A stretch of DNA of 34,331 bases, from positions 1 to 34,331 of the forward strand of contig JAGBWQ010000030.1 of NCBI GenBank assembly GCA_017629735.1, read 5' to 3'. The notes under the pieces are model-generated. The model saw nothing but the letters and a program-made list of their open reading frames with translations, did not search any database and was not told the DNA's origin. The DNA comes from Kiritimatiellia bacterium. GTDB taxonomy: Bacteria > Verrucomicrobiota > Kiritimatiellia > RFP12 > UBA1067. This document shows positions 1,994-27,843 of this stretch, in pieces. The translations under genes and the position numbers were made by a program. Within the stretch, counting starts at the first letter, position 1; each line of letters starts with the position of its first letter.

Positions 1994-3091
1994 TCAAACT
2001 ATCTTGGAATACTCTTCTCTGAACGCTCCGAAAGTCCCGTCGGCGATAGATTTACGCATATCCTCCATAAACCTGTTGAGCGCCCACACATTATGTATGG
2101 TAAGAAGTCTCAAGCCAAGAATCTCGCCACACGCCAGAAGATGACGAACATAAGAGCGCGAGAAATTGCGGCAGCAGTAGCATGTGCACCCCTCTTCCAC
2201 TGGGCCTTGATCAAATGCCCATTTTGCCGCTTTTATCGCCACATTCCCCTTCCGCGTAATGGCAGTACCATGGCGCGCTATGCGAGTAGGAATGACGCAA
2301 TCGAACATGTCGACACCACGCGCCACACACTCCACCATCTGCCGCATAACGCCAAGCCCCATAACATAGCGTGGGCGATCTTTCGGCAAGAAAGGAACGC
2401 TCGCATCGACAGCCTGATACATATACTTCTCAGGCTCGCCAACAGAAACGCCCCCGACTGCATAGCCATCAAAACCAATCTCAACAAGACTTTCGGCGCA
2501 GTGCCTGCGTATATCGTCGTACACGCCGCCTTGCACAATCCCGAAAACTTGCTGACCTGGCGCATGAGGCTCTTCTTTACTGCGCCGCGCCCAGCGGATA
2601 GATCTTTCTACCGAAGCTTCCGCACGCGCGCGATCGCACGGATAGGGAAGGCATTCATCGAAGACCATGGCAATATCGGAGCCAAGCACCCTCTGCATCG
2701 CCATCGACTCCTTAGGCCCAAGGAAGAACTCGTGTCCATCGATATGCGAGTTGAACCTACAACCCTCTTCAGTAAATGTACGACGCTTCGCCAATGAAAA
2801 AACTTGAAAGCCACCTGAGTCGGTAAGGATCGGACCATCCCAACGCATGAACGAATGAAGCCCACCAGCGGCGGCGATGATCTCGGGACCTGGCCTTAAA
2901 AGAAGGTGATATGTATTGCCCAACACCACCTGCGCCTTAAGCTCTTTCAAGTCGCGAGGCTCAAGCGCCTTTACCGAGCCAAGCGTCCCCACATCCATAA
3001 ACACAGGCGTTTCCACGACACCATGCGCCGTCGTTAAGCGACCAAGCCTTGCTGCCGAACCTAAATCTTCCTTTATAACCTCAAAACTCAT
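1994..3091 (-). CDS. tgt: tRNA-guanine transglycosylase (queuine tRNA-ribosyltransferase)
   Basis: ETPVFM, LGNTYHL, ILTDSGGFQVFSL, DMFDCVIPTR, Zn site CTCYCC...H. Start moved from 3166 to ATG 3091 (MSFEV), which matches the family N-terminus and the upstream -10 box. Confidence 0.97.
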   Translation of the reverse strand: MSFEVIKEDLGSAARLGRLTTAHGVVETPVFMDVGTLGSVKALEPRDLKELKAQVVLGNTYHLLLRPGPEIIAAAGGLHSFMRWDGPILTDSGGFQVFSLAKRRTFTEEGCRFNSHIDGHEFFLGPKESMAMQRVLGSDIAMVFDECLPYPCDRARAEASVERSIRWARRSKEEPHAPGQQVFGIVQGGVYDDIRRHCAESLVEIGFDGYAVGGVSVGEPEKYMYQAVDASVPFLPKDRPRYVMGLGVMRQMVECVARGVDMFDCVIPTRIARHGTAITRKGNVAIKAAKWAFDQGPVEEGCTCYCCRNFSRSYVRHLLACGEILGLRLLTIHNVWALNRFMEDMRKSIADGTFGAFREEYSKIV

Positions 3092-3099
3092 TGATGCGT

Positions 3100-3108
3100 A
3101 TTTTACCA
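3100..3108 (-). promoter_or_regulatory. Extended -10 element (TGgTAAAAT) 8 nt upstream of the tgt ATG; predicted leaderless promoter
   Basis: Minus strand reads tttTGgTAAAATacgcatcaATG; no SD. Confidence 0.6.
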
Positions 3109-3116
3109 AAATCCCC

Positions 3117-3145
3117 TTGCCATTTTTTGAAAAATTGTGTATCAT
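3117..3145 (+). promoter_or_regulatory. Sigma70-type promoter for the 3192 gene (TTGCCA-N17-TATCAT, with TG extension)
   Basis: TTGCCA 3117-3122, 17-nt spacer ending tgtg, TATCAT 3140-3145; SD-like aaggaag before ATG 3192. Confidence 0.6.
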
Positions 3146-3191
3146 TCTCACCAATATTAGTCTCATAGTCTAAAAGACAGACAAGGAAGAT

Positions 3192-4322
3192 ATGAACAAA
3201 GCCCTTTACGTATTCGTATATGTGTTTCTGATACTCTCTGGCGCTGCGCTCTTTTTTGAAATAGAGCTCAACGGCAAGCGCGCTGAATTGACAGATCGCA
3301 ACCGCATGCAAGAGGACTATCTCGTCCGAATCGCAAAGACTATCGAAAAGGTCGAGCCCGACAAAAACTCCACTTTCGAAATTCAGAAAGACGCATCTGC
3401 CGTCGAGAACAAGGATATCGCTCCCGAGATGGAGAACATTCTCGAAGAATATCCCGCCCCTCTCGAGCAGAGCAACCTCGAAACCTACAACTGGGAAAAC
3501 AGCCGCGATCAGCTCCGCTCCGTTTATGTCATCGATCCGATGACGGGCAAGCCTGTAATGGACGGCAATCAGCCCCAGACGCGCGGCAGTGACGAGCAGA
3601 AAATGCTCGAGCAGCTCTTTGGCAGCGCAAAGGAGCAGCAGACGCGCCTCAACAACACTCGCGCCCAGCTCACGGAACTGCGCGCAAGACTCGAGTCTGT
3701 TGTTAATGAGCTCAATAAACTCAAGCCCGAAGCCCGTAAGGACAAGGTGACGATCGACGATAGGAACGCAAAGATCGCCAAGCTTGAAGAAGCCAAGACT
3801 CAGCTCGAAGACTCGATTAAGAAACTCAAAGCTCAGATCGATGAGCTCAACGGCGAAATCACTTCTCTTAGAGACGAAGTTCAGACGGCCAAGAACGAAA
3901 CTGAAGCCGCCAAGGAAGAGCTCGCAAAAGAGCAGAAGAAGACCGAACAGCTCAAGATGCTTGTTAAGGAGCTTATCGCAGAAGCCAATGCTCGCTCCGC
4001 CAAGGGTGGCCGCGCAGCAGTCACTTCTATCACGAATGGCGACAAGGGCAAGGTCGTCCACTGCGACAACAAGTTTATGTTCGCTATCGTCGAGTTCAGC
4101 GACGAAGCCATCAAGGAGCTTAAGGGCGAAGACTTCTCTCGTCCCCTTCCTGTTCTTGAGCTGAGCGTCCGCCGCGAAGGCTTCAAGGGCCAGGCCGGCG
4201 AGTTTATCGGCCGCATTCGTCTCCGTCAGGAAGTCAAGGGCAAGAACTTCATCATCTGCGATATCCTCGGCGAATGGGAACAGGCCAAACTCCAGAAGGG
4301 CGACATTGTCGTAGCTGACTAA
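3192..4322 (+). CDS. N-terminally anchored long coiled-coil protein with small C-terminal beta domain, function unknown
   Basis: N-terminal hydrophobic helix; E/K/Q/L-rich heptads over about residues 135-270; beta-rich tail (GKVVHCD...FAIVE...GRIRL...KGDIVV); strong codon bias. Confidence 0.85.
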   Translation: MNKALYVFVYVFLILSGAALFFEIELNGKRAELTDRNRMQEDYLVRIAKTIEKVEPDKNSTFEIQKDASAVENKDIAPEMENILEEYPAPLEQSNLETYNWENSRDQLRSVYVIDPMTGKPVMDGNQPQTRGSDEQKMLEQLFGSAKEQQTRLNNTRAQLTELRARLESVVNELNKLKPEARKDKVTIDDRNAKIAKLEEAKTQLEDSIKKLKAQIDELNGEITSLRDEVQTAKNETEAAKEELAKEQKKTEQLKMLVKELIAEANARSAKGGRAAVTSITNGDKGKVVHCDNKFMFAIVEFSDEAIKELKGEDFSRPLPVLELSVRREGFKGQAGEFIGRIRLRQEVKGKNFIICDILGEWEQAKLQKGDIVVAD

Positions 4323-4329
4323 TCGCAAC

Positions 4330-4506
4330 ATGGCCAAAAAACTTCTATCGCATACTTTCAGGGTGCTTCTCGCTTCTATAGCGTTTGGCACCCTTGTTGG
4401 TTGCATAGCAGACAATGCGGAAGATACAGACCTGCCGTGGGCATCAAACCGCGGTTGGGAAGGAATCGCTCCTATTTCTCCCGCAGTGATGGATCGTTAC
4501 GATTGA
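4330..4506 (+). CDS. Small predicted lipoprotein, 58 aa (not in the supplied ORF track)
   Basis: My translation: MAKKLLSHTFRVLLASIAFGTLVGCIADNAEDTDLPWASNRGWEGIAPISPAVMDRYD*. Basic n-region, hydrophobic h-region, lipobox LVG|C; fills the gap between two same-strand genes. Confidence 0.8.
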   Translation: MAKKLLSHTFRVLLASIAFGTLVGCIADNAEDTDLPWASNRGWEGIAPISPAVMDRYD

Positions 4507-4523
4507 TGTAACGAATTGCCAAA

Positions 4524-5486
4524 TTGATCAAAGACACACAGATACGCGCCTCGCAAGGAGGAATGCGTCTTGACGCGGCAATACTTGAAGCATTTCCCTC
4601 TGCTTCCAGAGCCTTTGTACGCGATGCTATTGCTGCAGGAAACATTCTCGTAAACGGGAGACGATTTCGCAAAGGCGCAAAGCTCGCAGGAAATGAAATT
4701 ATTTCCATCAAGGAACTCTTAGAAGAATCGGACAATCTTGTCTTGCCCGAAAGCGGAGGCGATCTTAACGTCGTTTACGAAGACGATTTGATTGTAGCTT
4801 TCGACAAAACAGCAGGCATGAGCGTCCAGCCTCTCTCGTGCAAAGAGACAGGCACACTGATGAACTTAGCAGTATCAGTTTATCCTGAATGCAGGAAGAT
4901 CTCGGAAACGGACTCTCAAGGGAAAATAAGAAATACATTGATGGCGGGAGCGCTTCACCGAATCGACGCCGACACCTCTGGGCTTGTGATTGTAGCGCGC
5001 AGCCAAGAAGCGTTTGATTTTATCCGCGATCAATTTTCGATGCAGACGGTTGAAAAAACTTACCTTGCTCTAGTTGAAGGAAATTTTTGCGAAGGAGGAA
5101 GAATCGAAGGCGATCTCATCCACGATCCGACAGTCCCCTTCTGCAGAATGGTCGATCTTAAAAACAACCGCCTACACCCTTCGCAAGTTGCAAGGGCGAA
5201 GCCTCTGCATGCCGTAACAGAATACAAACCCATCGGGCACACGCGAAAAGAAAACGAAGATCTTACTCTTCTTGAAGTTACAATTTACACTGGAGTTACG
5301 CATCAGATAAGAGCGCAACTTGCATCATCTGGCATGCATATTGTAAACGATAGGCTCTACGGTGCTTTTGCTGTTGAAGGAATGACTGGTCACTGCCTAC
5401 ACTCTTTATCGGCAAAAATTATCCACCCATCTTCTGGCGAAAAAGTAACAATAAAAACTCCTTTGCCTGAGTGGGCAAAATTTTAA
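4524..5486 (+). CDS. RluA-family (RluD-like) 23S rRNA pseudouridine synthase with N-terminal S4 domain
   Basis: S4-like MRLDAAI...SRAFVR..I..GNILVNG; VVYEDD; catalytic HRIDADTSG; TGVTHQIRAQLA; DRLYG. Confidence 0.93.
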   Translation: MIKDTQIRASQGGMRLDAAILEAFPSASRAFVRDAIAAGNILVNGRRFRKGAKLAGNEIISIKELLEESDNLVLPESGGDLNVVYEDDLIVAFDKTAGMSVQPLSCKETGTLMNLAVSVYPECRKISETDSQGKIRNTLMAGALHRIDADTSGLVIVARSQEAFDFIRDQFSMQTVEKTYLALVEGNFCEGGRIEGDLIHDPTVPFCRMVDLKNNRLHPSQVARAKPLHAVTEYKPIGHTRKENEDLTLLEVTIYTGVTHQIRAQLASSGMHIVNDRLYGAFAVEGMTGHCLHSLSAKIIHPSSGEKVTIKTPLPEWAKF

Positions 5487-5489
5487 AGC

Positions 5490-5978
5490 CTACACAGATG
5501 TTGCGGCAACAACAAGCATGCCGAGCGCATGAACTACCGCTTGCTTTCTTACTAGCTCGCGATCTCCTTGGAAAAAAGCCTTTTCTGCTCGCGTGCCTGA
5601 TGACGAGGAAACTGCAAACCAAACAGTTCCAACTGGTTTTTCTGCCGTTCCTCCGCCGGGCCCTGCAATGCCAGTAATAGACACTGCAATGTCTGCGCCG
5701 TAAAGTCTGCGCGATCCTTCTGCCATTTCTACTGCGCACTCAGATGAAACGGCGCCATAGCGCTCTAAAGTATCACTGGAGACTCGAAGCACCGCTTCCT
5801 TCGCGCTATTGGCGTATGTTACAGCTCCTCCAAGGAAAACCTCACTTGCACCAGAGACTGATGTAATTGCCTGAGAGACGCCACCACCTGTACAGCTTTC
5901 TGCCGTAGCACAAGTCATACCGCTCGATTTAAGCAATTCGACAAGAACAGCGGCTGTCTTTTCAGGAGAGATATTCAC
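5490..5978 (-). CDS. pncC: CinA C-terminal domain protein / nicotinamide-nucleotide amidohydrolase PncC
   Basis: ATAESCTGG, VTYANSAK, GAVSSECAVEMAEG, SITGIAGPGGGT.EKPVGTV. GTG start at 5978 overlaps the upstream TGA (GTGA coupling). Confidence 0.9.
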   Translation of the reverse strand: MNISPEKTAAVLVELLKSSGMTCATAESCTGGGVSQAITSVSGASEVFLGGAVTYANSAKEAVLRVSSDTLERYGAVSSECAVEMAEGSRRLYGADIAVSITGIAGPGGGTAEKPVGTVWFAVSSSSGTRAEKAFFQGDRELVRKQAVVHALGMLVVAATSV

Positions 5979-7060
5979 GATACAATCCCCCACTCGCGCA
6001 GAGGCTCCACAGGAAGCCCCATAATATTCTCATATCCACCACTGCTGTACGAGGATATAAGATTAAATCCGCTATCGTCAATATCGTAAGCCCCTGCACG
6101 ATCAAGAGGACAGACGCGCGTTACATAATCTTCTATCACCTCGTCGGGAAGAACGCGAAATGCCACATCTGAGCGAACTGTCTTTACATCGCCATCGCAC
6201 ACAACTGCCGTATACACCGAATGGACATTACCCGAAAGCTCGCGCAAGAACGCCCTTGCCTCGTCAAGATCACGCGGCTTGCCATATATCTTGCCGTTTA
6301 ACCACACGATCGTATCAGCGGCAATAACATGGCCGCGAGATTTGACGGCGGCGCCTTTAGCCAATGCATTTTCGCGAACAGTTCTCCCCGGGTCTCCCGG
6401 ATAGATGACCTCCTCCACATCAGTTTTAACAACTATAAAATCAACTCCGTGGTCGCGCAGAATTTTTGCTCTTCGCGGGCTAGCGCTCGCAAGAACATTG
6501 AACGCCACAGGCCCTTCGCGCAAAAGAACAAGCTCACCCTTATCTGATTTTGCGACGGTCGAAGCTTCGCCCCCTGGCGAGAGACCATCGTCCACCACAA
6601 TATCAGCACCAAGACCAACATTCTCAAATGTGAGCGCAGCATCAGTAGCAGGCGCACAGCCCGATTCATTTGCGCTCGTCACACGCAAAACGCCGCCGCA
6701 CCTTGAAATAAGTTCGCGCGTAAAAACATGATTAGGAACGCGCACACCTTCAAATGTGCCATTAGACGACGGAAGGACAAGCGTCAACGCGCCTGGCCAA
6801 TGAAGTTTTGCCAAGCGACGAGGCTGCGCCTCAAGGCCGCCAAGAAAATTTTCAACCGCCATCACATCCGATGCAAGCAATGCTATCGGCTTATCCGAGG
6901 GGCGCCCCTTCAAAGAAGAAAGGCGCGCAACCGCCTCAGGACAATCAGGATGCGCGGCAAGTCCATAGACTGTATCCGTGGGGATTACAGCTACTCCTCC
7001 CGCCTTCAATACACGCACAGCCTCTTCAAGGCCTGCACCATCTGCTTTTACCATCTTCAC
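5975..7060 (-). CDS. Fusion: L-threonylcarbamoyladenylate synthase (TsaC/YrdC/Sua5) + Maf-family nucleotide pyrophosphatase
   Basis: N-half: IPTDTVYGL, KGRPSDKPI, WPGALTLVL, GVRVP, TSANESG, LLREG. C-half: VLASASPRR, ENALAK, IAADTIV, IYGKP, LRELSG..HSVYT, AGAY, NIMGLP. One continuous ORF. Confidence 0.9.
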   Translation of the reverse strand: MKMVKADGAGLEEAVRVLKAGGVAVIPTDTVYGLAAHPDCPEAVARLSSLKGRPSDKPIALLASDVMAVENFLGGLEAQPRRLAKLHWPGALTLVLPSSNGTFEGVRVPNHVFTRELISRCGGVLRVTSANESGCAPATDAALTFENVGLGADIVVDDGLSPGGEASTVAKSDKGELVLLREGPVAFNVLASASPRRAKILRDHGVDFIVVKTDVEEVIYPGDPGRTVRENALAKGAAVKSRGHVIAADTIVWLNGKIYGKPRDLDEARAFLRELSGNVHSVYTAVVCDGDVKTVRSDVAFRVLPDEVIEDYVTRVCPLDRAGAYDIDDSGFNLISSYSSGGYENIMGLPVEPLREWGIVS

Positions 7061-7067
7061 AAAGCGG

Positions 7068-7076
7068 ATTATATCA
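7068..7076 (-). promoter_or_regulatory. Extended -10 (TGaTATAAT) 7 nt upstream of GTG 7060; predicted leaderless promoter
   Basis: Minus strand reads ttTGaTATAATccgctttGTG. Confidence 0.7.
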
Positions 7077-7081
7077 AATTA

Positions 7082-7090
7082 TGGTATACT
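7082..7090 (+). promoter_or_regulatory. Extended -10 (TGgTATACT) 7 nt upstream of ATG 7098; predicted leaderless promoter
   Basis: Plus strand reads aTGgTATACTccatcttATG. Confidence 0.65.
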
Positions 7091-7097
7091 CCATCTT

Positions 7098-7715
7098 ATG
7101 AAAAGGACGACAATTTCAACTGGCACATTCGAAGTTAACTGTTCCATACTTACAAACGGAGCAGATGCAATGGTTGTAGACCCGGGCGGCGAGCCAGAGA
7201 GAATTATTGCGATCATGCGCAAAGAAGGCGCGTCCCTCAAAGCGATTCTTCTTACACACGCACACTTCGACCACATTGGAGCTGTCAATCAGCTTCTTGA
7301 GGAATATCCCGATACGCCAGTATACATCGGCGAAAACGATATGCCTGTCGTCTCACACCCTTTCAATCAACTCCCTCCAGATTATCCGCCGTGCGCACCA
7401 TTCCCAAATATGCGCCCCGCATCGGAAGCTCATGGAGTTGAGGCAATTCCAACGCCTGGGCATACACCTGGAGGCGTCTGCTATTTTATCCGCGATTTCG
7501 CCCCAGAGACAAATACACCGCATCTCCTTCTTAGTGGAGACACTCTTTTTGCAGGCTCAATAGGCAGAACCGATCTTCCTGGCGGAGATATGGCAACGCT
7601 TTCGCGCAGTCTCGAAAGCCTTAAAAAACTGCCTTCCAATACGCTCGTCGTCCCAGGGCACGGCTACGAGACGACATTGGAAAGAGAAATATCCTCAAAC
7701 CCCTTCTTGGTTTAA
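7098..7715 (+). CDS. MBL-fold metallo-hydrolase (glyoxalase II-like, YcbL/GloC type)
   Basis: VVDPG, LLTHAHFDHIGA (HxHxDH), TPGHTPG, SGDTLFAGSIGRTD, PGHG. Start set at ATG 7098 because the longer ORF overlaps the divergent gene. Confidence 0.92.
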   Translation: MKRTTISTGTFEVNCSILTNGADAMVVDPGGEPERIIAIMRKEGASLKAILLTHAHFDHIGAVNQLLEEYPDTPVYIGENDMPVVSHPFNQLPPDYPPCAPFPNMRPASEAHGVEAIPTPGHTPGGVCYFIRDFAPETNTPHLLLSGDTLFAGSIGRTDLPGGDMATLSRSLESLKKLPSNTLVVPGHGYETTLEREISSNPFLV

Positions 7716-8192: not shown

Positions 8193-9886
8193 TGATCCTC
8201 CGTAACGCGCATAACTTCCTTAACAGAAGTAATTCCTGCAAACACCTTCGCCCAACCATCTTCGCGCAATGTCTTCATGCCCTTAGAAAGAGAGATGTTG
8301 CGAATGACAGAAGCGTTTTCTCTGCGGACGATTGCGCTTTCAATATCTTCATCAACATCCAAGACCTCAAAAAGCGCCCTTCTTCCCTTGTAACCCGTGC
8401 GCGTACATTCGTCGCACCCAAAAGGCTCAAAGACAGTATTTTTCGCAGGAGGAACATCGAGCGTGTAATACTTCATGTCGAGAGGAACTTCTTTCCTGCA
8501 CGTTGGGCACAGACGACGGCAAAGACGCTGCCCCATCACACCAGCCACTGCCGACGCGATAAGGAATGGCTCCACACCCATATCAATAAGACGCGGAAAT
8601 GCGCCTGCAGCATCATTCGTATGAAGCGTTGAGAACACCATGTGACCGGTAAGAGAAGCGTTAATGGCGATTTCTGCTGTTTCCTTATCGCGTATTTCGC
8701 CGACCATGATAATATCTGGGTCTTGACGGAGAAACGCACGAAGCGCACGCGCGAAAGTCATGCCAATTTCAGATTGCATCTGTACCTGATTGATGCCGGC
8801 CATGTGATATTCGATAGGATCTTCGGCCGTCATGATACGCACATCAATCTTGTTAACTTCGCTCAAGAACGAATAAAGAGATGTAGATTTACCAGAACCA
8901 GTAGGCCCTGTTACAAGAAAGATTCCGTTGGGACGATGAATAATCTTATCAACCACAGCAAAATCTCGCTCGTTAAATCCGAGATCTTCCATCTTAACGA
9001 ACGAACCAGACTTTGCCAAAAGACGCAGCGAAATCGATTCACCATACGCCGCAGGCATCGTAGAAACACGAATGTCGAGATCCTGCCCGCCGATTCGCAT
9101 ACCAATGCGTCCGTCCATAGGAAGGCGCTTTTCTGCGATATCAAGAGAAGCCATAACCTTGATACGAGAAATTATGGCATTCTTCAAACGGTTCAGCTGA
9201 TGAGGAACATCAACCTTGTGCAACATTCCGTCGATACGATAGCGGATGCGCAACTCCGTCTCTTGAGGCTCGATATGAATATCAGTGGCTCCCTGGCGAT
9301 CGGCTTCTGCAATAATCTGGTTGACGAACTTGACGATCGAGGCTTCCTCGTCCATCTCGTTAACATCAATCTTCGTCATCGCGCCTATATTATCTTCAAC
9401 ATAGAAGCGACCATCTTCAAGCATCTGCTCGATTGTCTCGGCGCCTACACCGTAATACTTCTTAACAGCCTTCTCCACTTCTTCCTTTGGAGCAAGAGCC
9501 GTTTTGACCACGACACCAGATGCTAAGCGTATGCCATCAGCAGCAACAGTGTCAAAAGGATCGGACGAGACAACTGTTAGAATATTCCCTTCAATGCGGA
9601 ACGGAAGAACAGTAAACTTATTAACCGCCGCGGCAGTTAAGCTCTGAAGCGCGTCTGGAGAAGGGTTCTGCCTGGAAAGATCGACCATCTCCATACCAAG
9701 CGCACGAGCAACAGCAGAAAGAAACTCCTCTTCGCGAACGCCGCCAAACCTAACAGCGGCGTCCGCAAGTTTCATTCCTGGATTTGCCGCGCGCTGGACC
9801 ATAATACGATCAAGCGCCTCCGGAGAATAAATTCCGGCAGACGAAAGAAGCAACCTAGCAAGCGATGAATTTTCGGACATTCCCAT
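8189..9886 (-). CDS. GspE/PilB-family type II secretion / type IV pilus assembly ATPase
   Basis: N-terminal T2SSE domain; ATDIHIEP, LDIAEKRLPMDG, Walker A GPTGSGKS, AEDPIEY, LRQDPDIIMVGEIRD, TGHMVFSTLHTND, Zn motif CPTC...CDEC. Confidence 0.95.
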   Translation of the reverse strand: MGMSENSSLARLLLSSAGIYSPEALDRIMVQRAANPGMKLADAAVRFGGVREEEFLSAVARALGMEMVDLSRQNPSPDALQSLTAAAVNKFTVLPFRIEGNILTVVSSDPFDTVAADGIRLASGVVVKTALAPKEEVEKAVKKYYGVGAETIEQMLEDGRFYVEDNIGAMTKIDVNEMDEEASIVKFVNQIIAEADRQGATDIHIEPQETELRIRYRIDGMLHKVDVPHQLNRLKNAIISRIKVMASLDIAEKRLPMDGRIGMRIGGQDLDIRVSTMPAAYGESISLRLLAKSGSFVKMEDLGFNERDFAVVDKIIHRPNGIFLVTGPTGSGKSTSLYSFLSEVNKIDVRIMTAEDPIEYHMAGINQVQMQSEIGMTFARALRAFLRQDPDIIMVGEIRDKETAEIAINASLTGHMVFSTLHTNDAAGAFPRLIDMGVEPFLIASAVAGVMGQRLCRRLCPTCRKEVPLDMKYYTLDVPPAKNTVFEPFGCDECTRTGYKGRRALFEVLDVDEDIESAIVRRENASVIRNISLSKGMKTLREDGWAKVFAGITSVKEVMRVTEDQ

Positions 9887-9901
9887 CAGTCCCTTTTTGT
9901 T

Positions 9902-11017
9902 TTAAACAACAGGTCGTATATACTTAGACTTGAGCGCTCTCCAAAGCACTACGCAAAAAGCCGACAGCGGTATTGCCAGCAACATCCCAAGCAAAGGCCC
10001 GAGTAGCGTCGCCCAAAGGAAGAACGAGAAGATAACCCCACCGTAGCCAAGGCCTGTGCGGTCGCCCTGTATCTTTGGAGTAATAAGATAGCCATCAAGA
10101 AGCTGACCCGCAAGCCACACAGCAAGAACCGAAAAGAGTCTAGCCGCCGACCCGCCAGGACCAAAATACGCAAGCGGGAGTGCTATTGGCAAGCACACGA
10201 GAGATCCAAGGAATGGAACGAGGTTTATTGCACCAAGCGCAAACCCAACGAGGAAGCCACACGGCAATCCAACAAACATAAACCCAAGCCCGTAGAGCGT
10301 TCCTTCACAAAGGCAGATTACCGTCTGACGTTGGAAGAACGAAACGAGAATATCCGTGAAGGCATCAATTTGCTGCGCGACAAAAGCCTTTGTCTCGGGC
10401 TTAAGGAATGCAAGGCCTTTGACCATCTCTTCGCCGCGGCGTTCCTTGGTGGTAATGAAGAAAATGAAGAAAATAAGAGTTACCAGCCCGCTTACAAGTA
10501 TCTCAGCAAGACGTATGGCGCCAGAGCCTGCCTTAATGGCTGTCATTCCATAACGAGAATAAATGTCACCAATATTTTCGTATGGCACTCCAAGCTGAGC
10601 CATTAGCGAATGAAATTTAGGAAATGTATCGCGAAACCAGTTACTTGCCTGAGAGAAAAGCTGCGGCCCTTGGGCGATAAGATTAGAGAGCTGATCGACC
10701 ACAACAGCTCCTGCATACCAAAGAAGAAGGACAATAGGCACTGCCACAGACAAAAGCATCAGGACAAGAGCAAGCGTAGGATTTTTAAAAATTCGCTGGC
10801 AAAGCTGATAATAAGGCCTAAAAAACAACGCCAAAAAGAAGCCGAGCAAGACTGGCACTAACGCTGGAGAGGCGAAAAGAAGCGCCTTCATAACAAACCA
10901 TGCCACAACACCGGCAAAAGTCAAAACTGCAATAGTCGCGAGAACCGCAAGCCCTCCTGCAGCCGTTTTTCTCGATGTTATACGTTCTTCATTTACTTTT
11001 TCGTTCTGCATACTCAT
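9902..11017 (-). CDS. AI-2E family transporter (PerM/TqsA-like)
   Basis: Multiple TM helices; NLVPFLGS, LDGYLITPKIQGDRTGL, LGMLLAIPL. True start may be the second ATG at 11011. Confidence 0.9.
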   Translation of the reverse strand: MSMQNEKVNEERITSRKTAAGGLAVLATIAVLTFAGVVAWFVMKALLFASPALVPVLLGFFLALFFRPYYQLCQRIFKNPTLALVLMLLSVAVPIVLLLWYAGAVVVDQLSNLIAQGPQLFSQASNWFRDTFPKFHSLMAQLGVPYENIGDIYSRYGMTAIKAGSGAIRLAEILVSGLVTLIFFIFFITTKERRGEEMVKGLAFLKPETKAFVAQQIDAFTDILVSFFQRQTVICLCEGTLYGLGFMFVGLPCGFLVGFALGAINLVPFLGSLVCLPIALPLAYFGPGGSAARLFSVLAVWLAGQLLDGYLITPKIQGDRTGLGYGGVIFSFFLWATLLGPLLGMLLAIPLSAFCVVLWRALKSKYIRPVV

Positions 11018-11020
11018 AAT

Positions 11021-11048
11021 ATTGTAGCATTATTTTTCCGAAAATCAA
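11021..11048 (-). promoter_or_regulatory. Promoter TTGATT-N16-(TGc)TACAAT just upstream of the AI-2E gene; predicted leaderless
   Basis: Minus strand taTTGATTttcggaaaaataaTGcTACAATattATGagtATG; -10 box is 9 nt from ATG 11011. Confidence 0.55.
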
Positions 11049-11080
11049 TAGTGTAAGACTATAATAGCACTTAATTTCTA

Positions 11081-11524: not shown

Positions 11525-11536
11525 ACGCTGCCCTTT

Positions 11537-17612: not shown

Positions 17613-17657
17613 TAAAGTTCCTCCGCCAGATATCGTTTCTATGCCAGCGCGAAAGCC

Positions 17658-18899
17658 TTAAAACCTCAACACGAAATAATTCTTCTTGCCTGCACGCAAG
17701 ACAGCAACGCCATCGCGTACATCATCTTCGGAGAAGATTCTTTCTGGAGGTGCCTTCGTGTCGTTGAGGGAAAGACCGCCCTGCTGCGACATGCGCCTTG
17801 CCTCACCATTGGACTTGAACATCCCAGCTGCCGCGGCAACTGCAAAGACGCTCTTACCCACACATTCAGAAAGGACAACATTCGCGCTTGGAACATTCTC
17901 GGCCTTCGCCACATCGGAAGCAGTCTTCTTGGCATAAAGAGCCTCAGTTGCCTCCTGTGCCTTCTTAAGGCCCTCTGCACCATGCACAAGAAGAGTTACT
18001 TCTTCCGCAAGCGCCTTCTGAGGAATTCTCGCCTCGGGGTTTTCCTTCATAGCGGCCTCAAGAGAAGCAATCTCATCAAGAGACTTCATCGAGAAAACCT
18101 TAAGATACCTGATAGCATCAGCATCAGGCGTACGAAGGAAGTACTGATACCAATCGAAAACAGATGTCATCGACGCATCAAGGTACAAAGCATTACCTTC
18201 GCTCTTGCCAAATTTACGCCCAGCCGAATCAAGAAGAAGCGGGAATGTAAGACCAAAAACAGACTTGCCCCTCATGCGATGGACAAGGTCTGTTCCTGCT
18301 GTGATATTACCCCACTGATCGGCGCCTCCGACTTCCATCGTGCAACCAAACTTATCGTAGAGATGGAGGAAGTCGTTGCCTTGAAGGATCTGATAGGAGA
18401 ACTCTGTAAAAGTAAGCGCACCATCGCTAGCCTCAAGACGCTTTTTGACAGACTCCTTAGCGAGCATCTGAGGAACGCGGAAGTTAACCGCAATATCACG
18501 GAGAAACTCAATCGCCGAAGTATTGCGATACCACTCGTAATTGTCTACGAGAACGGCCGCATTAGGACCGTCGAAATCGAGTATTCGCGAAAGATTCTCG
18601 CGAATACCCTTCTTGTTCTCTTCGACCTGTTCGACCGTAAGCATATTGCGCTCGGCCGACTTGCCAGACGGGTCGCCTATAAGCCCTGTCGCTCCGCCTA
18701 CAAGAGCAATAACCTTATGCCCCGCAAGCTGGAAGCGGCGCAAAACCATTATAGAAACAAGGTTGCCCGCCTGCAGCGATTTCGCGCTTGGATCAAACCC
18801 GCAATAAACAGTGGTGGGCTTGTCGAGAGCCTTCTCTACCTCCTGATCGGTGAGCGCCTCGACAAGTCCGCGTGCCTTAAGTTCTTCTATCAGATTCAT
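17658..18899 (-). CDS. tyrS: Tyrosine--tRNA ligase
   Basis: YCGFDPSA.SLQAGN (HIGH-equivalent), GGATGLIGDPSG, FTEFSYQILQGNDF, GGADQWGNI, KFGKS, C-terminal S4 domain. Confidence 0.97.
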   Translation of the reverse strand: MNLIEELKARGLVEALTDQEVEKALDKPTTVYCGFDPSAKSLQAGNLVSIMVLRRFQLAGHKVIALVGGATGLIGDPSGKSAERNMLTVEQVEENKKGIRENLSRILDFDGPNAAVLVDNYEWYRNTSAIEFLRDIAVNFRVPQMLAKESVKKRLEASDGALTFTEFSYQILQGNDFLHLYDKFGCTMEVGGADQWGNITAGTDLVHRMRGKSVFGLTFPLLLDSAGRKFGKSEGNALYLDASMTSVFDWYQYFLRTPDADAIRYLKVFSMKSLDEIASLEAAMKENPEARIPQKALAEEVTLLVHGAEGLKKAQEATEALYAKKTASDVAKAENVPSANVVLSECVGKSVFAVAAAAGMFKSNGEARRMSQQGGLSLNDTKAPPERIFSEDDVRDGVAVLRAGKKNYFVLRF

Positions 18900-18907
18900 T
18901 GCTATGT

Positions 18908-18916
18908 ATTATATCA
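18908..18916 (-). promoter_or_regulatory. Extended -10 (TGaTATAAT) 8 nt upstream of the tyrS ATG; its TGA is the stop codon of the upstream GH2 gene
   Basis: Minus strand aaaTGATATAATacatagcaATG. Confidence 0.7.
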
Positions 18917-21900
18917 TTTATTAGCATTAAGAGGCGTGATCGACGTCGTCCAAGAGACGGGGGCCTTGGGATCAAAAAGGTACTTGTTGAGAGGCCCAGG
19001 ACCGCAGCTTGCGCCGCCAAGACCGACCTGCCTTACATCAAGGTTGAGGTAGATTTCCTTCTGCATTTCAACAGGCGTACGATAGCGCTTCTGTCCGCTA
19101 CGCTGACGCGACATATCAAGCTGCTCCCAGTTGCAGTGAAGTGCCTGGACGAACATCGGCTCGGACGATGCAAAGCGCACGCCGCGCCCAGCCTTGTCCT
19201 TAAAATCGACATAACGCACATCTGCCTTGTAGCCGTTATCCTGCGGCCTTACATAAAACTCGAACTGCTCGGTGACAGTAGACTCCCAAAGAGCAATAAA
19301 CGAACCGGAGCAGCGGTCAATGTAGTTCTCACGCGGGCCGCGTCCGTAATAAGCCATGCGCTCAAGGGCGGGGTCAAGAATGAGAGAAAGACCGATACGC
19401 GGAATGTGCGAGGGGAAGTCGCCATGCGGAATAGACTTATTCTCGATGGAGATGTTTCCGTCGGCAGAGAAGCTCCAAATGGCCTCGTGCGTGAAACCAG
19501 CGGATTTTGCTCCCGTAACTTCTACAACAGTCTTGACCTTACCATTTTCAACCTTAATCGGGCGAGCATGATAGGAAATCTGCGAAAGACCCTTAGAGAA
19601 GAATCCGCCATGCTTGCGGTTTTCGCCCCAAGCGGATCCGTCGCGCATCCAGCGATCGTTGTCTGTGAATGCACGGGCGCATGTTAGACGAGGACCTGCC
19701 GCAAGACCAGGGGCGATATCGCGAAGAATAGTCCTGCCATCCATTTCAAGGGACGAGAGCGTGCCAGTCTTTCTGCAGAAGATAGCCTTTGTGCTACCTG
19801 CAACGACTGTAACTGTCTTTTCGTCCTGAGTTATCGCAGGAGCAAACTCCGTCTTAACCGCGAGGAAGCTCTTCGCAACACCCTTGCCGAGAGCTATCTG
19901 GTTGCGCGAAACAGCCCAGCCCTTCTTTGCCCACCGGCAATCTGCCTTGGTAAGGAATTCAACTTCAAGGAACACTTCCGCGTCTGCCGGCGTGCGCGAA
20001 AGCGCCTCAGCAAGACCAGGGATGGTGAACCTGCAACGGCTGAGCGGCTGAACAGCGGGAGATTCAAATGCACCTGCGGCGCACTCCTTGCCGTCTGCGC
20101 GAAGACGCCACACACCGTCGAAAGCATCTGCACATGTGAAGCAGAACCTGTTCCAAAGCTCAAGCACAACGGCTCTAGGATTATCCTTCTCGTCTTCCGA
20201 GCGCGTAACGACAAGATTGCGGTAAACATGAGCAACTTCGATAAGCTTGGCGCTCACATTGCGGAAAGGATCGACGACGCCATTGCAGCAGAAAGGTCCG
20301 TCGTTCGGCTCTTCGTCCCAATCGCCGCCGTAGGCCAAGAAGCGCTCAGCCTTGCCAGTCGCAGGATCTACAAGACCTGTTTTCTTCCAAATAGCCTGAT
20401 CGACCCAGTCCCAAATGCAACCGCCGGAAAGTGCAGGATACTCATAGAATACATCCCAATATTCCTGAAGGTTGCCGATCGCATTGCCCATCGCGTGGGC
20501 ATACTCGCAAAGGAAGAAAGGTTTGCCAGGAGTCTGAGCGTACTTGTCCTTATTCTCCTTGCCCTTGGCCGGTGGCTTGTCGTTTCCGATCTTGCCGCGC
20601 CAAATAAGCCAGTCTACAAAAGGATACATGTGCGAGTCGACATCGGCATCGCCATTGCCGCGCTCCCAGTGGATTGGACGCGTAGGATCGACAGCGCGAA
20701 CTTTATCTGCGGCGCGGCAGAAGCCCTCGCCATGGCCAGTCTCGTTGCCAAGCGACCAAAGCGTGACAGAAACATTGCCGCGGTAGAAAATAGCATTGCG
20801 CTCATTGCGCTCGACAATAGACGAGAACCATGTCTCATGGAGGCCAAGACCGTCTTGATCGTAGCCAGGCTCGTGCGCCTCAACATTTGCCTCGGCGCAA
20901 ACATAGATACCATAAAGGTCACAAAGATCATACCAGAGGTGATGGTTCGGGTAGTGGCTTGTGCGGACTGTATTGATGTTGTACTTCTTGAAAAGTTCAA
21001 TATCGGTAATCATGTCCGAAAGCGAAACGGTGCGGCCATTTTCAACATTGCACTCGTGGCGGTTTACGCCTTTGAACTTAACAGCCTTGCCGTTTACATA
21101 GAAAGTATTACCAACGATCTTCTGCTCCTTGAAGCCAACCTTCTTTGTGCGGATATCGCCGCCCTTCTTGAGGATAAGCGTGTAAAGGTAAGGATCTTCA
21201 GCAGACCAGAGGCGAACATTCTTCACCTCAAAGGCGACAGGCCCTGCCGTGAATGCGCCAACGAGCGCACCATTAGCATCGTAAAGACGAGCCTCGGCGC
21301 CATCGCAACCTGCAACGGAGATAAGCGCATTCTTGTAATCGTCCTTAAGTTCCGTCTTGGCGTGGAAATCCCAGATACCGCCCTTAGGCATCGACCAAAG
21401 CGTCACATCACGGAAGATGCCGGAGAATCTGTACATATCCTGGTCTTCGAGGAAGCTACCATCAGACCAACGGAACACCTCGACTGCCAGCACATTTGGA
21501 CGCGCGGCATCGGTGTTGAGGTAAGCGGTGATATCAAATTCGCTCGGAAGCTTGGAGTCTTCCGCATAGCCAACCTTCACGCCGTTCACCCAAACATAGT
21601 AGGCCGAATATACACCGTCAAAGCGGAGGATTACATCGCGCCCCTTCCAATCGGCGGGAACGGTGAATGTCGTGCGATAGCTCGACACGGGATTGTAATT
21701 CGCCTTGCCCGTATCGCGGTCGCGAATGGTGGGGTTTTTAATATCGCGCTTCGGTTCCCACGCATGCGGATAGCGCGTATTGACATACCCCGGCGTGCCG
21801 AAACCGCGCATTTCAACGCAGCTGGGCACATCGATCGTGAACCAGTCAGAATCGTCGAAGCCATTCTCCCAAAAGCCCTTCACGCGAAGCGCGGGATCGC

Positions 21901-22114: not shown

Positions 22115-22119
22115 CTCTA

Positions 22120-22827: not shown

Positions 22828-23111
22828 TCTTCAAAAATGAACACTAATTCCCCAGGAAACACACGGCGGTTCTGCCTAGCAATTGATTCAACAAAATCCG
22901 GATCAGAGCGAAATCTACGCTGATTTTCAGAAAGTTTAGCAATCTGCCGCTGTTTTGCTTCAATCTGAGCTCTAAGCTCCATATCGCGCTGAAGCAAAGT
23001 ACGCCTCCTATTGTAGGTGGGTAAAGCAAACAGAGAACCACCCACCACAATGACAGCCACAAGCGCCATAGTGAAGAAAAGCATGCAACGATTCTTAAAA
23101 CCCTCTTTCAT
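22824..23111 (-). CDS. Septum formation initiator family protein (FtsB/DivIC)
   Basis: Short cytoplasmic tail, single TM, coiled coil, SDPDFVESIARQ...PGELVF. Confidence 0.85.
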   Translation of the reverse strand: MKEGFKNRCMLFFTMALVAVIVVGGSLFALPTYNRRRTLLQRDMELRAQIEAKQRQIAKLSENQRRFRSDPDFVESIARQNRRVFPGELVFIFED

Positions 23112-23119
23112 AACCTTGC

Positions 23120-23128
23120 ATTATATCA
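23120..23128 (-). promoter_or_regulatory. Extended -10 (TGaTATAAT) 8 nt upstream of ATG 23111; predicted leaderless promoter
   Basis: Minus strand tttTGaTATAATgcaaggttATG. Confidence 0.65.
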
Positions 23129-23147
23129 AAAATTCTTCATCCAATCA

Positions 23148-23177
23148 TTGACATTTGCCAAAAATTTGAGATACTAT
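23148..23177 (+). promoter_or_regulatory. Sigma70-type promoter (TTGACA-N18-TACTAT) for the CBM48 gene
   Basis: Consensus TTGACA at 23148-23153, TACTAT at 23172-23177; SD-like gaaagg before ATG 23251. Confidence 0.6.
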
Positions 23178-23250
23178 GTAATAATTCTTGCCGCAAAAGG
23201 CCAATTCGAGATGAATTTTCGAGTAGCCTAAAGGTGAAAGGCAATCAAAG

Positions 23251-23613
23251 ATGAAAATCAAAACTACTAAGAAGTGCGCGGCAAAGACCGTTGCGAAAAA
23301 GAAATCCACCAGCGGGAAATGCGCGGCAAAGAAGACCGTCGCAGCCAAGAAGCCTGCAGGAAAGAGCGTAATGTTCACTGTCCATGCAGAAAAAGGCAAG
23401 GCTGTCTATCTCGCTGGAGACTTCAACGAGTGGAATCCTAAGGCCAAGAAGATGACCTTCAAGGCTGGTGTCTACTCCGCAAGTGTCAAGCTTGTTCCTG
23501 GAGAATACCAGTACAAGTTCATCGTTGACGGGATCTGGTGCGCCGACCCGGAGAACACAAACTCCGTGCCGAACGATCAGGGCACATTCAACTCTGTAAT
23601 CACCGTAAAGTAA
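23251..23613 (+). CDS. Lys/Ala-rich histone-like N-terminal tail fused to a CBM48 (AMPK-beta/isoamylase early-set) glycogen-binding domain
   Basis: N-terminal about 37 aa KTTKKCAAKTVAKKKSTSGKCAAKKTVAAKKPAGK; then VYLAGDFNEW, LVPGEYQYKFIVDGIWCADP, GTFNSVITV. Confidence 0.88.
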   Translation: MKIKTTKKCAAKTVAKKKSTSGKCAAKKTVAAKKPAGKSVMFTVHAEKGKAVYLAGDFNEWNPKAKKMTFKAGVYSASVKLVPGEYQYKFIVDGIWCADPENTNSVPNDQGTFNSVITVK

Positions 23614-23626
23614 CGCTACTCGCCGA

Positions 23627-24469: not shown

Positions 24470-24479
24470 CGCAACACCT

Positions 24480-26189
24480 TCACCTTCCCTCATTCGCATT
24501 GTCAAAATCGACTGTCTCAGGAACATTCGGTAAACAACCGCCTGTGCTGATGGCACTAAAAAGCTCTTCTGCCTTATCCATATCGTACCACCAGTACGAA
24601 AGCGCAGCCTCCTCCCTTCCAAGGCGAGAAAGAACAGCTGGTGGAGTACCAAATTTATTCCAATAAAGAAGCCGCGTAGAATCGGTCTGCCAAAGAAGCA
24701 CATAAGGAACAGCTGCTGCGATTCTGGCATCCATCTGCCTATACGCTTCAGTTCGCTCGTCCATGGACGACATCTTCTTCTCATCATCAATGAGCTTGTC
24801 TACTACAGGATCGCTAAAGCCTGTAATATTGTTCGACCCCTTGCGCACTGCCTCACGGCTCGACCAAGAAAGCTCTGGATATTTAACGCGCCCCGCGCCC
24901 CACGCCGCCCATGTCATATCAAAGTTAAAATCGTCCATATCGCGCATCCATGCTGCGAAATCCTTGCGCACAATTTCCATCTTCACACCACATTCAGCAA
25001 GCGCATGCGAAAAGAGCGAAAGGAATTTATCTTCCGTTGAACTGCGCGAAAGAAATGTGAAAGAAAATCCGTTAGCGTAGCCGGCCTTGCGCAGGAGCTC
25101 CTTCGCGCCCTTAACATCGTACTTCCAAACAGTATTCGTGCATGGGTGCTTGGAATCATAGAGGTCTTGCCAATAAGAGCTGAGAAGGAAATATGCGCCA
25201 TTCATCATTGTGCGATTCATCGTCTCCCTATCGACGAGTTTAGCCATAGCCTGCCTCACCTCAAGCTTATTGAAAGGCGCTCGGCGCATATTCATTGCAA
25301 ACCCCTGGAATCCAATTGGCGCATGATTTTTGACGCGCCTTTTAAGCGTCAAATTACGCCCGAAAATCTCAGAGCGAGTACCTTCGGCGTAGATGCGCGC
25401 CGTATATACAGGATATAGATCGATCTTTCGCTTCTTAAATGCTTCAAACGCATTTTCATTATCTGCAAAATAGCGCACAACAACTTTATCAAAGTTGCAA
25501 GTTCCGCGGCAAGAAGGCAAATCCTGTCTCCACCACCGACCATGGCGCGTCAGCTCCGTTTCTATCTGCTCGGCGACACGCGAAATAAAATACGGCCCAC
25601 CTGAAACGGCATTGGCAAATTCAAGTTTATTGAAATCCTTCCCTTCAAATGCGTGGCGCGGCAAAATCCAAAATGTTGAGCAGTTGAGAATATCGCGCCA
25701 ATCGCTACCGCTACTCCCCTTCTTCTTAAAGCGAACCGTAAGATCATCTACAACGATAGGACTTTCAAAGAAAGCAAGCGTTGGCTTCCACGGCCCTGTA
25801 TCACTCGCAGGATCAAGGACAGTATCAAACGTCCACTTTACATCGTGCGCCGTGACACTTTTCCCGTCCGACCATTTTGCACGCGGATCAATTTCAAAGA
25901 CAAACTCGTTTCCATCTCTTGAAACAGCCCAGCGTCTTGCGAGCGCAGGCACAAGCTCGCCTGTCTGAGAATCAACACCAAGGAGTCTATCGTACATCAT
26001 ATCGAAGAGCATCGATGTGTACGCATTATTGTCGGTGTATGCGTTGAAACTCTTTGGTGGCTGCGCTCCATTCAAGCGCATCACACCGCCACGACGGGCA
26101 TAAGGCGATGCAGAAGGATCGGGCTTTTCCGTCCATCCTGCGGATGGATACCAGATAAGCGAAGCAAGCAGAATACTTGCGAAAGGCAT
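24480..26189 (-). CDS. ABC transporter family-5 extracellular solute-binding protein (YejA/OppA-like)
   Basis: RRGG..., PKSFN, LVPALARRW, AKWSDGKSVTAHDVKWTF, SGGPY, FAMNMRRAPF...VRQAM, DFNFDM, WWYD. ATG 26189 overlaps the upstream TAA (TAATG). Confidence 0.92.
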   Translation of the reverse strand: MPFASILLASLIWYPSAGWTEKPDPSASPYARRGGVMRLNGAQPPKSFNAYTDNNAYTSMLFDMMYDRLLGVDSQTGELVPALARRWAVSRDGNEFVFEIDPRAKWSDGKSVTAHDVKWTFDTVLDPASDTGPWKPTLAFFESPIVVDDLTVRFKKKGSSGSDWRDILNCSTFWILPRHAFEGKDFNKLEFANAVSGGPYFISRVAEQIETELTRHGRWWRQDLPSCRGTCNFDKVVVRYFADNENAFEAFKKRKIDLYPVYTARIYAEGTRSEIFGRNLTLKRRVKNHAPIGFQGFAMNMRRAPFNKLEVRQAMAKLVDRETMNRTMMNGAYFLLSSYWQDLYDSKHPCTNTVWKYDVKGAKELLRKAGYANGFSFTFLSRSSTEDKFLSLFSHALAECGVKMEIVRKDFAAWMRDMDDFNFDMTWAAWGAGRVKYPELSWSSREAVRKGSNNITGFSDPVVDKLIDDEKKMSSMDERTEAYRQMDARIAAAVPYVLLWQTDSTRLLYWNKFGTPPAVLSRLGREEAALSYWWYDMDKAEELFSAISTGGCLPNVPETVDFDNANEGR

Positions 26190-27028
26190 TATCGCTCCGT
26201 CGGCAAGCCCCAAGAATCGAGCTTAGCCGCCATCCAATCGAAGGCCGCCTCGTGAATCTGACGCGACTTTCCACAAGGTATCGCAGGCCCACACGCCACA
26301 CGAATATCGCACGACGTATCAACTGGACCGAAATCTTTAAACACCTTGCTCAAAAGGCCTTTCTTGCGAGTCGGCTGGCACCTTGTATCAACTACGAGCG
26401 GTATGACAGGGCACCCTGCTCTTTCTGCAAGCTTTGCGCCAATCGACGAATATTTCGCACGGCTGAAAACTTCGCAGCGCGTTCCCTGAGGGAATATAAG
26501 GAAACTCTGGCCAGACTGAATTCTCTCCGTTCCAATGCGAAGAATATTCATCAAATCCTCACGCGGCGACGAACGGCTGATTGGGACCATTCCCATGTGG
26601 GCAGCAGCCTTTTCAAGGAACGGAAGATGCGCAAGAGATGCTTTAGCCACATAGCTAAATGGGCCGAACGAAAGCAGAATTGGAGGCAGAAGAATTGTCT
26701 CCGTCATAGACATGTGGTTGCAAAGATACACAACGGGACCGTCGACTGCGAGGCGATTTTCAAACCCTTCAACCGTCACATTCATACCAAGCTTTTCGGC
26801 AACATTCACCACGCCCAGGCACGCCTTTGCCCAGTTTTGCGTAGTAAGAATACCAAACGGCTCAGTAATGGCGCAGAAAGGAAATACTCTTGTAACTCCC
26901 CACGAATAACGAAGAGTGGCGAGCGCACTAGGACGCGCTCTTTTCTTCGCACGATGGCTTGGCGCAGTAGCATACGCGCCAGTCGAACGCAGTTCGTTTT
27001 GAAACTCACTCAACGACGTCGTTTTCAT
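26189..27028 (-). CDS. Lysophospholipid acyltransferase family protein (PlsC-like)
   Basis: VYLCNHMSMTE (HX4D-like), YVAKASL..PF, IFPQGTR, PVIPL. Start at ATG 27028 with SD ggag. Confidence 0.88.
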   Translation of the reverse strand: MKTTSLSEFQNELRSTGAYATAPSHRAKKRARPSALATLRYSWGVTRVFPFCAITEPFGILTTQNWAKACLGVVNVAEKLGMNVTVEGFENRLAVDGPVVYLCNHMSMTETILLPPILLSFGPFSYVAKASLAHLPFLEKAAAHMGMVPISRSSPREDLMNILRIGTERIQSGQSFLIFPQGTRCEVFSRAKYSSIGAKLAERAGCPVIPLVVDTRCQPTRKKGLLSKVFKDFGPVDTSCDIRVACGPAIPCGKSRQIHEAAFDWMAAKLDSWGLPTER

Positions 27029-27827
27029 TTTCTCCACCCTTCTCTGCTTTCGCTTGAGCTTCCTTTGCTTGAGCTTCCTTTGCTCTAGCCTCGCGTAGCT
27101 GACGCATTTCCTCACTCATCGCACTAAGACGCTCGCGCATTTCTTCGCGTTCAGCAGCATGCTCAGCTTCGCGCGCCGCTTCTTTTTCAGCCTGTGCAGC
27201 CTTTTCTTCCGCCTGACGCTTGGCTTCCTCTTCCTGGCGACTGCGCTCTTCCATCGCAATACGCTGTCTGCGCGACCTAAGCGATGTAAAACTTCTTGTC
27301 CCAAGCAAAGAAGAACGTCCTGCCGAAGCTGGGGCGGGGGTTGCCTCAAGCGTGGCTGGGGTTGCTGCGCCCTTGCGCTTCATATTGCCGCCGCCCTTTG
27401 CGGAATTATCACCAAGCGTAAGCTCAAGAGAAACGCCATCTTTCTCAAGCACAATAGAAGCCTTCTCAGGATCTGCATTAACAACCGTCCAACCGCCAGC
27501 AGTATCGCCTTCGCAAATAAAATAATGGCAGGGCTCCTTCGGATCGGAATTATCCGTAAAGCCTACTTCAACCTTCCCATCTTTCCTTACATTAATAACG
27601 GAAAAATGGATAGAACTTTTGAGCTTTTCCTGCTCAGCGGCAAGCTCTTTATCTGCCTTTGAATTGCGCTTTTGGACCTCGCTTGGCATCTTCGTGGGAT
27701 CGAAGCCTTCAGGCAATGCCCCAAACATCTGCCGCTCGATAATCGACTCATAGCGACTAAAAGGCGCTCTCTCGGCCGCAGCCGCAAACGAGAATACTGC
27801 AGATATTACTAATATGATGCGCTTCAT
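27006..27827 (-). CDS. Hypothetical exported protein, possibly GspC-like beta domain with a charged coiled-coil tail
   Basis: Signal peptide MKRIILVISAVFSFAAAA; YESIIERQMFG; beta-rich middle (...YFICEGDTAGGWTVVNAD...IVLEKDG...LTL); E/A/R-rich helix. Start at ATG 27827, 7 nt after a -10 box. Confidence 0.75.
   Translation of the reverse strand: MKRIILVISAVFSFAAAAERAPFSRYESIIERQMFGALPEGFDPTKMPSEVQKRNSKADKELAAEQEKLKSSIHFSVINVRKDGKVEVGFTDNSDPKEPCHYFICEGDTAGGWTVVNADPEKASIVLEKDGVSLELTLGDNSAKGGGNMKRKGAATPATLEATPAPASAGRSSLLGTRSFTSLRSRRQRIAMEERSRQEEEAKRQAEEKAAQAEKEAAREAEHAAEREEMRERLSAMSEEMRQLREARAKEAQAKEAQAKAEKGGENENDVVE
27052..27084. repeat. 15-bp perfect tandem duplication in coding sequence (AKEAQ x2)
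   Basis: gcttgagcttccttt at 27052-27066 and 27067-27081, plus partial gct. Confidence 0.85.
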
Positions 27828-27834
27828 TTGCGTA

Positions 27835-27843
27835 ATTATATCA
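27835..27843 (-). promoter_or_regulatory. Extended -10 (TGaTATAAT) 7 nt upstream of ATG 27827; predicted leaderless promoter
   Basis: Minus strand ttTGaTATAATtacgcaaATG. Confidence 0.7.

Follow-up and report, generated by a model that had tools for sequence, protein, structure and literature searches.

Extended −10 promoters next to start codons point to leaderless transcription in a gut Kiritimatiellia genome

The closest described counterparts of the promoter arrangement reported here are bacteria of GeneMarkS-2 group C, in which a Pribnow box lies approximately 10 nt from the starts of first genes. In that survey, 25–50% of operons are leaderless in 1,028 of 4,769 bacteria, with Mycobacterium, Streptomyces, Corynebacterium and Deinococcus–Thermus as examples, and the other genes use Shine–Dalgarno (SD) sequences; its text names Actinobacteria, Deinococcus–Thermus, Proteobacteria and Firmicutes (PMC6028130). 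For the Lactococcus–Streptococcus group, Zheng et al. (2011) described a leaderless signal about 10 bp before the translation start, with a strong TG peak that apparently replaces the −35 element, and reported that the −10 element degenerates as GC content rises (PMC3160421). In Deinococcus–Thermus, a −10 motif immediately before the open reading frame (ORF) drives leaderless mRNA in approximately 30% of ORFs (PMC12340547). Here we describe an extended −10 element (TGn followed by a −10 hexamer) that lies just before start codons in a 34,331-nucleotide stretch of DNA (the window), which is the whole of one contig (C150; GenBank JAGBWQ010000030.1) of a 1.48-Mb metagenome-assembled genome (MAG; GCA_017629735.1) that comprises 158 contigs, is 72.5% complete and has a GC content of 50%. 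The lineage is a gut and rumen lineage of Kiritimatiellia (Verrucomicrobiota, within the Planctomycetes–Verrucomicrobia–Chlamydiae (PVC) superphylum), and the nearest relatives of the TyrS and Tgt proteins of the window come from rumen and gut MAGs.

The arrangement is like that of group C in that a −10 box lies 6–8 nt before first genes (with the peak at 7 nt here), a sizeable share of operons is involved (27 of 80 divergently transcribed genes here) and SD sequences serve the rest (PMC6028130). The 5′ start codon in group C is AUG or GUG; here, the motif-adjacent start codons are ATG in 113 cases (93%), GTG in 6 and TTG in 3, and 22 GTG starts occur in the tgt genes of relatives. It is unlike group C in its lineage and in having a full TATAAT with TGn, compared with the degenerate TAnnnT of the high-GC groups (PMC6028130). 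The TG-extended −10 is shared with Lactococcus–Streptococcus, and a 66%-GC relative shows TGnTAnnnT; however, the phylum differs from that of the low-GC Firmicutes and the GC content is 50% (PMC3160421). With extended −10 (TGn) sigma70 promoters, the element shares the TG one base upstream of the hexamer and the lack of a −35 element, and its occurrence before tRNA genes is an indirect sign, from sequence, that it acts as a promoter whatever the coding context. The Deinococcus–Thermus study was backed by transcription profiles and promoter swaps, whereas leaderless transcription here is inferred from sequence (PMC12340547).

The phyla that the text of PMC3160421 gives as having leaderless genes exclude Verrucomicrobia, Chlamydiae, Planctomycetes and Lentisphaerae, in ProTISA 0 of 11 Chlamydiae and Verrucomicrobia genomes show a TA-like signal (PMC2238952) and, in the accessible text of PMC10783764, Kiritimatiellae appear only in the anti-SD table. 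A first-pass annotation of the window, made from the sequence alone, knew of no leaderless description for this lineage; our literature search likewise found none for Kiritimatiellia, although the supplementary material of PMC6028130 and PMC12340547 (figure S7) might list the lineage. The mechanism is a known bacterial leaderless architecture; what is new, so far as our searches show, is the lineage and the patchy distribution.

We read the sites, in the window and genome-wide, as promoters that would give rise to leaderless or nearly leaderless mRNAs, and put the probability of this reading at roughly 85%. The first-pass annotation had proposed such transcription from an extended −10 element, and its proposal gains support from the spacing peak, the occurrence of the element before tRNA genes, the absence of a −35 element and conservation in relatives. 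All seven leaderless-type sites that it had noted are present, with the positions and spacers given in Table 1. Gene names were checked with Pfam profiles at curated cut-offs, and matches at or above the cut-off back 9 of the 10 names at the sites that it had noted. Among the seven, the products match TGT (tgt; E = 3.4 × 10−155), Sua5_yciO_yrdC and Maf (tsaC-maf), Lactamase_B (metallo-beta-lactamase (MBL)-fold hydrolase), AI-2E_transport (AI-2E transporter), tRNA-synt_1b (tyrS) and DivIC (ftsB); no Pfam family was matched by the product of the 27827 gene.

Table 1. Extended −10 elements and the starts that follow them; positions are those of the window.
Feature	Position	Strand	Element	Spacer and start codon
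tgt	3089..3108	−	TGGTAAAAT at 3100–3108	8 nt, ATG 3091–3089
tsaC-maf	7058..7076	−	TGATATAAT at 7068–7076	7 nt, GTG 7060–7058
MBL-fold hydrolase	7082..7100	+	TGGTATACT at 7082–7090	7 nt, ATG 7098–7100
AI-2E transporter	11009..11029	−	TGCTACAAT at 11021–11029	9 nt to second ATG, 11011–11009
tyrS	18897..18916	−	TGATATAAT at 18908–18916	8 nt, ATG 18899–18897
ftsB/DivIC	23109..23128	−	TGATATAAT at 23120–23128	8 nt (gcaaggtt), ATG 23111–23109
27827 gene, family-less	27825..27843	−	TGATATAAT at 27835–27843	7 nt, ATG 27827–27825
hydG-like radical SAM gene	29392..29424	−	9-mer at 29416–29424	21 nt, ATG at 29394
DUF975-like gene	29457..29519	+	9-mer at 29457–29465	51 nt, ATG at 29517
fdtA	30532..30569	+	9-mer at 30532–30540	26 nt (leader carries aaaggtg), TTG at 30567

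Some of these sites need comment. In tsaC-maf, the codon 7 nt from the motif is the GTG; an ATG first occurs 13 nt from the motif, at 7054. The first ATG of the AI-2E gene (11017) is only 3 nt past the hexamer; we take the second ATG as the start because the first lies upstream of any plausible transcription start. The tyrS promoter comes directly after the upstream gene, the stop codon of which starts at 18916 and shares one base with the 9-mer. The promoters of tsaC-maf and of the MBL hydrolase are arranged back to back (7068–7090), with their 9-mers on opposite strands and 5 nt apart, such that the 37-nt gap between the two start codons would serve two leaderless genes transcribed divergently.

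Lack of positional enrichment across the genome had been named in advance as the outcome that would speak against leaderless transcription; what we find is a sharp peak at 6–10 nt. Among the 366 TGNTANAAT sites (TGnTAnAAT) of the genome, 100 are followed at this distance by an ATG with which an ORF of 100 codons or more begins, and spacings of 6, 7, 8, 9 and 10 nt account for 20, 31, 18, 21 and 10 cases, respectively, with the mode at 7 nt. The background amounts to 0–3 cases for each spacing of 0–5 nt and 0–9 for each of 11–40 nt, and neighbouring spacings have about 3 each. A perfect TGNTATAAT occurs 6–10 nt before 85 of 1,846 start-zone ATGs compared with 0 of 6,237 internal in-frame ATGs, and at least 7 of 8 TGNTATAAT matches occur before 113 and 4 of them, respectively. 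Gene starts were taken from our own simple ORF and dicodon caller (1,295 ORF calls), and we call a start leaderless-type if it has the extended −10 motif at 6–10 nt. By this definition, at least 120 of the 1,295 ORF calls are leaderless-type, as are the 27 of 80 divergently transcribed genes mentioned above, each of which must have a promoter of its own. We quote the divergent-gene fraction because a split of operon-first from operon-internal genes by intergenic distance is made unreliable by leaderless promoters, which lie within the 3′ end of the preceding gene. Our estimate is that about a third of transcription units would be leaderless-type. The base that precedes a motif-adjacent start is T in 61 cases, A in 32, C in 22 and rarely G (4 of 119).

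The choice of start codon is not trivial, as 35 of the 120 leaderless-type starts are preceded by another candidate start in the same frame. If the longest ORF were always taken, those 35 genes would be called too long, and tgt likewise, in keeping with the earlier remark that the motif corrects start calls. These alternative starts, and the use of gene starts that are not validated, also bear on a different reading, namely that the motif is a real promoter but that translation begins further downstream, at a codon served by an SD sequence of its own, so that the mRNAs are leadered and the adjacent ATG is incidental. We consider this very unlikely. It leaves the sharp 6–10-nt peak of ATGs that open long ORFs unexplained, it does not account for starts that are 93% ATG, and the Pfam domains begin at residues 10–33 and at profile positions 2–10 (Lactamase_B in the MBL hydrolase begins at residue 10). 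Furthermore, the codons immediately after the ATG or GTG are kept in relatives, but the sequence upstream is not.

Comparison with relatives backs the starts that had been assigned to tgt, tyrS, tsaC and the 27827 gene. For tgt, TGnTAnnnT lies 6–10 nt before the aligned start in 62 of 79 evaluable loci (40 with ATG and 22 with GTG), and in 3 of 4 clostridial outgroup loci an SD-like AGGAGG or AGGAG lies just upstream of the aligned N terminus. For tyrS, the same pattern occurs 6–10 nt before the ATG in 55 of 80 related loci, despite diverged flanks. In eight relatives, residue 1 of TsaC lines up with the tsaC GTG of the window; among these relatives are both SD-led genes and genes in which a −10-like element precedes the ATG by 6 nt. 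Homologues of the 27827 gene show the same geometry in 5 of the 12 relatives examined, with ATG or GTG. Two variants were seen among these loci. In about a dozen related species (L007–L016), tyrS directly follows a tRNA gene and a purine-rich leader (gaaagagaagaaaa) replaces the leaderless promoter. In five relatives with genomes of 4.6–6.7 Mb (L191, L195, L200, L202 and L203), a block ...cttacacgccttgcgc...caagtgTGGTACAnA is kept 6 nt before the TsaC ATG, and its −10-like hexamer ends in A, not T.

The motif is a predicted sigma70-type extended −10 promoter and not a translation signal, because it precedes tRNA genes, lacks a −35 element and shows bimodal distances to starts. TGnTAnA[A/C]T is found 10–39 nt upstream of 24 of 40 tRNA genes, and many of the other 16 are at a contig edge or directly after another tRNA gene. 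The tRNA-gene promoters are mostly TATACT (14 of 24) and those of the leaderless protein genes are mostly TATAAT. In sites aligned on the hexamer, the region 8–40 nt upstream of it, which covers the −35 region, carries at most 0.14 bit. The TG and the hexamer were selected for in this alignment and the T at −5 from the hexamer was not; its frequency is 0.91. The consensus is (A/T)(A/T)T(A/T)TGnTATAAT, in which the T-rich stretch before TG likewise emerged without selection, and after the hexamer A and then C are preferred.

For the 241 TGNTATAAT sites, the distance to the called start that follows is 6–10 nt in 89 cases, 11–20 nt in 10, 21–40 nt in 45 and 41–80 nt in 34. As these distances are bimodal (6–10 nt, or at least 21 nt), leaders are either absent or long enough for an SD sequence. 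No 16S gene was found in the 72.5%-complete MAG, such that the anti-SD sequence is not readable and SD use is shown by enrichment on the mRNA side. SD 4-mers peak 7–9 nt before start-zone ATGs, reaching 115 per 1,000 at 8 nt compared with 23 per 1,000 at internal ATGs, so SD-led initiation serves the remaining genes. In the window, other genes carry SD-like sequences (aaggagga, aaaggagaa, ggcggagga or ctaggaga) or overlap with the preceding stop codon, in line with the first-pass annotation.

The distance between motif and start codon is also typical of ribosome-binding sites, which would suit a non-SD translation element, inside a longer leader, formed by the A/T-rich 9-mer, like the A-rich Bacteroidota motif (GeneMarkS-2 group B). 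This is highly improbable given that the 9-mer precedes the tRNA genes, stands 21–80 nt from starts whose leaders hold SD-like sequences and exactly matches the sigma70 extended −10 consensus, in a genome in which SD sequences are clearly used. That the motif is a chance or compositional artefact of A/T-rich intergenic sequence, in favour of which approximately 4 TGNTANAAT sites are expected in the window and 2 of the 11 present lie inside genes (9575–9583, +; 28834–28842, −) and match chance expectation, can be rejected as having a negligible probability: none of 100 dinucleotide shuffles (4.44 ± 1.93 sites) reaches 11, none of 500 first-order Markov simulations (mean 0.27, maximum 4) reaches the 5 cases of TGNTANAAT-N6-9-ATG in the window, an independent genome count gives 87 matches for TGNTATAATN{6,9}ATG compared with 0 for the reversed-pattern control, the internal ATGs described above show no perfect motif, and the arrangement is kept in relatives.

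With motif, spacing, promoter nature, conservation, start-codon bias and SD use elsewhere as direct observations, we infer the position of the transcription start and the mode of ribosome binding for the leaderless genes. The housekeeping sigma70-type RNA polymerase would recognize the −35-less extended −10 element and start transcription 6–8 nt downstream, at the A of ATG, at the G of GTG or 1–3 nt before. As the space before the start is too small for an SD sequence, the ribosome with initiator tRNA would bind the 5′-terminal start codon directly, by analogy with other bacteria that have leaderless mRNAs. This mode would coexist with ordinary SD-led initiation of leadered and operon-internal genes.

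Several points weigh against leaderless transcription or narrow its extent. The sole RNA run found, a bovine-gut metatranscriptome (share 0.09), consists of assembled contigs, 14 short ones here, which carry no 5′-end information. One of these contigs (18798–18961) spans the tyrS promoter and start, and thus some RNA (or library DNA) reads through from the upstream gene into tyrS. At sites with spacers of 9–10 nt (31 of 100), leaders of 1–3 nt may be present rather than none. Also, 45 leaderless-type starts are within 40 nt of an upstream gene on the same strand, and those 45 genes may be co-transcribed with that gene too. Finally, the leaderless class is defined by the motif, so the leaderless fractions are estimates, and the starts rest on a simple caller and not on a validated gene finder.

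We examined the distribution of the arrangement across the lineage by counting the exact pattern TGNTATAATN{6,9}ATG, except where a loose pattern is stated. In the order of the window, 22 of 61 genomes have 19–115 matches with no more than 6 control matches, and most others have 0–9. These dense genomes belong to genera of three families: g1, g2, g44 and g46 in the family of the window, g5 in family f4 and g4 in family f3. In a sample of the phylum, exact matches do not go above 5 in any of the 34 genomes that represent other orders of the class. Other classes are represented by 101 genomes, and there the excess over the control is clearest in two genomes of one genus (25 compared with 0 control matches, and 15 compared with 1), and four further genomes have 12–14 matches compared with 0–1 in the control. 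The exact pattern misses GC-rich genomes and undercounts GC-rich relatives. For example, the 66%-GC genome G007, of the same order, has 0 exact matches, but the loose pattern TGNTANNNTN{6,9}ATG gives 160 matches compared with 70 in the control; it shows a weak TAnnnT peak at 6–9 nt (21 sites compared with approximately 8 expected), and 9 of the 21 sites carry TGn. The ratio of observed to control matches for the loose pattern is 1.4–11.9 in the order and mostly 0.8–2 elsewhere. The exact and loose counts therefore place the trait mainly in the order of the window, with a consensus that weakens as GC content rises; comparable density was not found in the other orders searched, which is not a claim of absence.

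A tentative interpretation, to which we give slightly less than even odds, is that leaderless expression in abundance is derived and has expanded within a single gut-associated order of Kiritimatiellia, where it is dense in particular genera from three families and degenerate in relatives rich in GC, with no comparable density seen in the other sampled orders of the class. If so, leaderless initiation rose independently and fairly recently in the PVC superphylum. Close genomes with and without the trait could then show promoters migrating onto start codons and SD-led and leaderless starts interconverting. Both states occur among relatives for tgt and tsaC.

With leaderless expression in this genome, a PVC lineage would join the bacteria in which leaderless genes are frequent. 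There are also practical consequences: in these rumen and gut MAGs, which are abundant, gene callers that assume SD sequences will place starts wrongly, and TTGnTATAAT without a −35 element is a usable promoter model for an uncultured lineage. The patchy distribution within one order, in which the same gene is SD-led or leaderless, could serve the study of changes in initiation mode.

The window also contains the same 9-mer before hydG, the DUF975-like gene and fdtA, where, as had been noted, it is followed by leaders (Table 1). The hydG-like product matches the Pfam radical SAM and BATS families, and its leader, acgcaaaaatcacattttcat, has no SD-like sequence and would belong to a short leadered mRNA that lacks an SD. 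The DUF975-like product scores 20.4 bits, below the Pfam cut-off of 34.8, and the fdtA product matches FdtA. GC content drops from approximately 50% to 40% and then 35% across fdtA and the sugar-modification genes (30000–34331), the ORFs of which score poorly in the dicodon caller; this end of the window may be a horizontally acquired glycan cluster.

TsaC (Sua5/YrdC) and Maf are fused in a single ORF of 361 amino acids (5975–7060, −). The halves correspond to separate genes, on different contigs or far apart, in each of the 40 family relatives that were searched (two of them from the same genus), and a related-locus search with the TsaC–Maf protein found no close relative. The fusion is either species-specific or an assembly chimera. 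Opposite ftsB, a small gene (23251–23613, +) is the best-covered stretch in the single metatranscriptome, with an RNA contig at 23255–23604 and a depth of 12.6.

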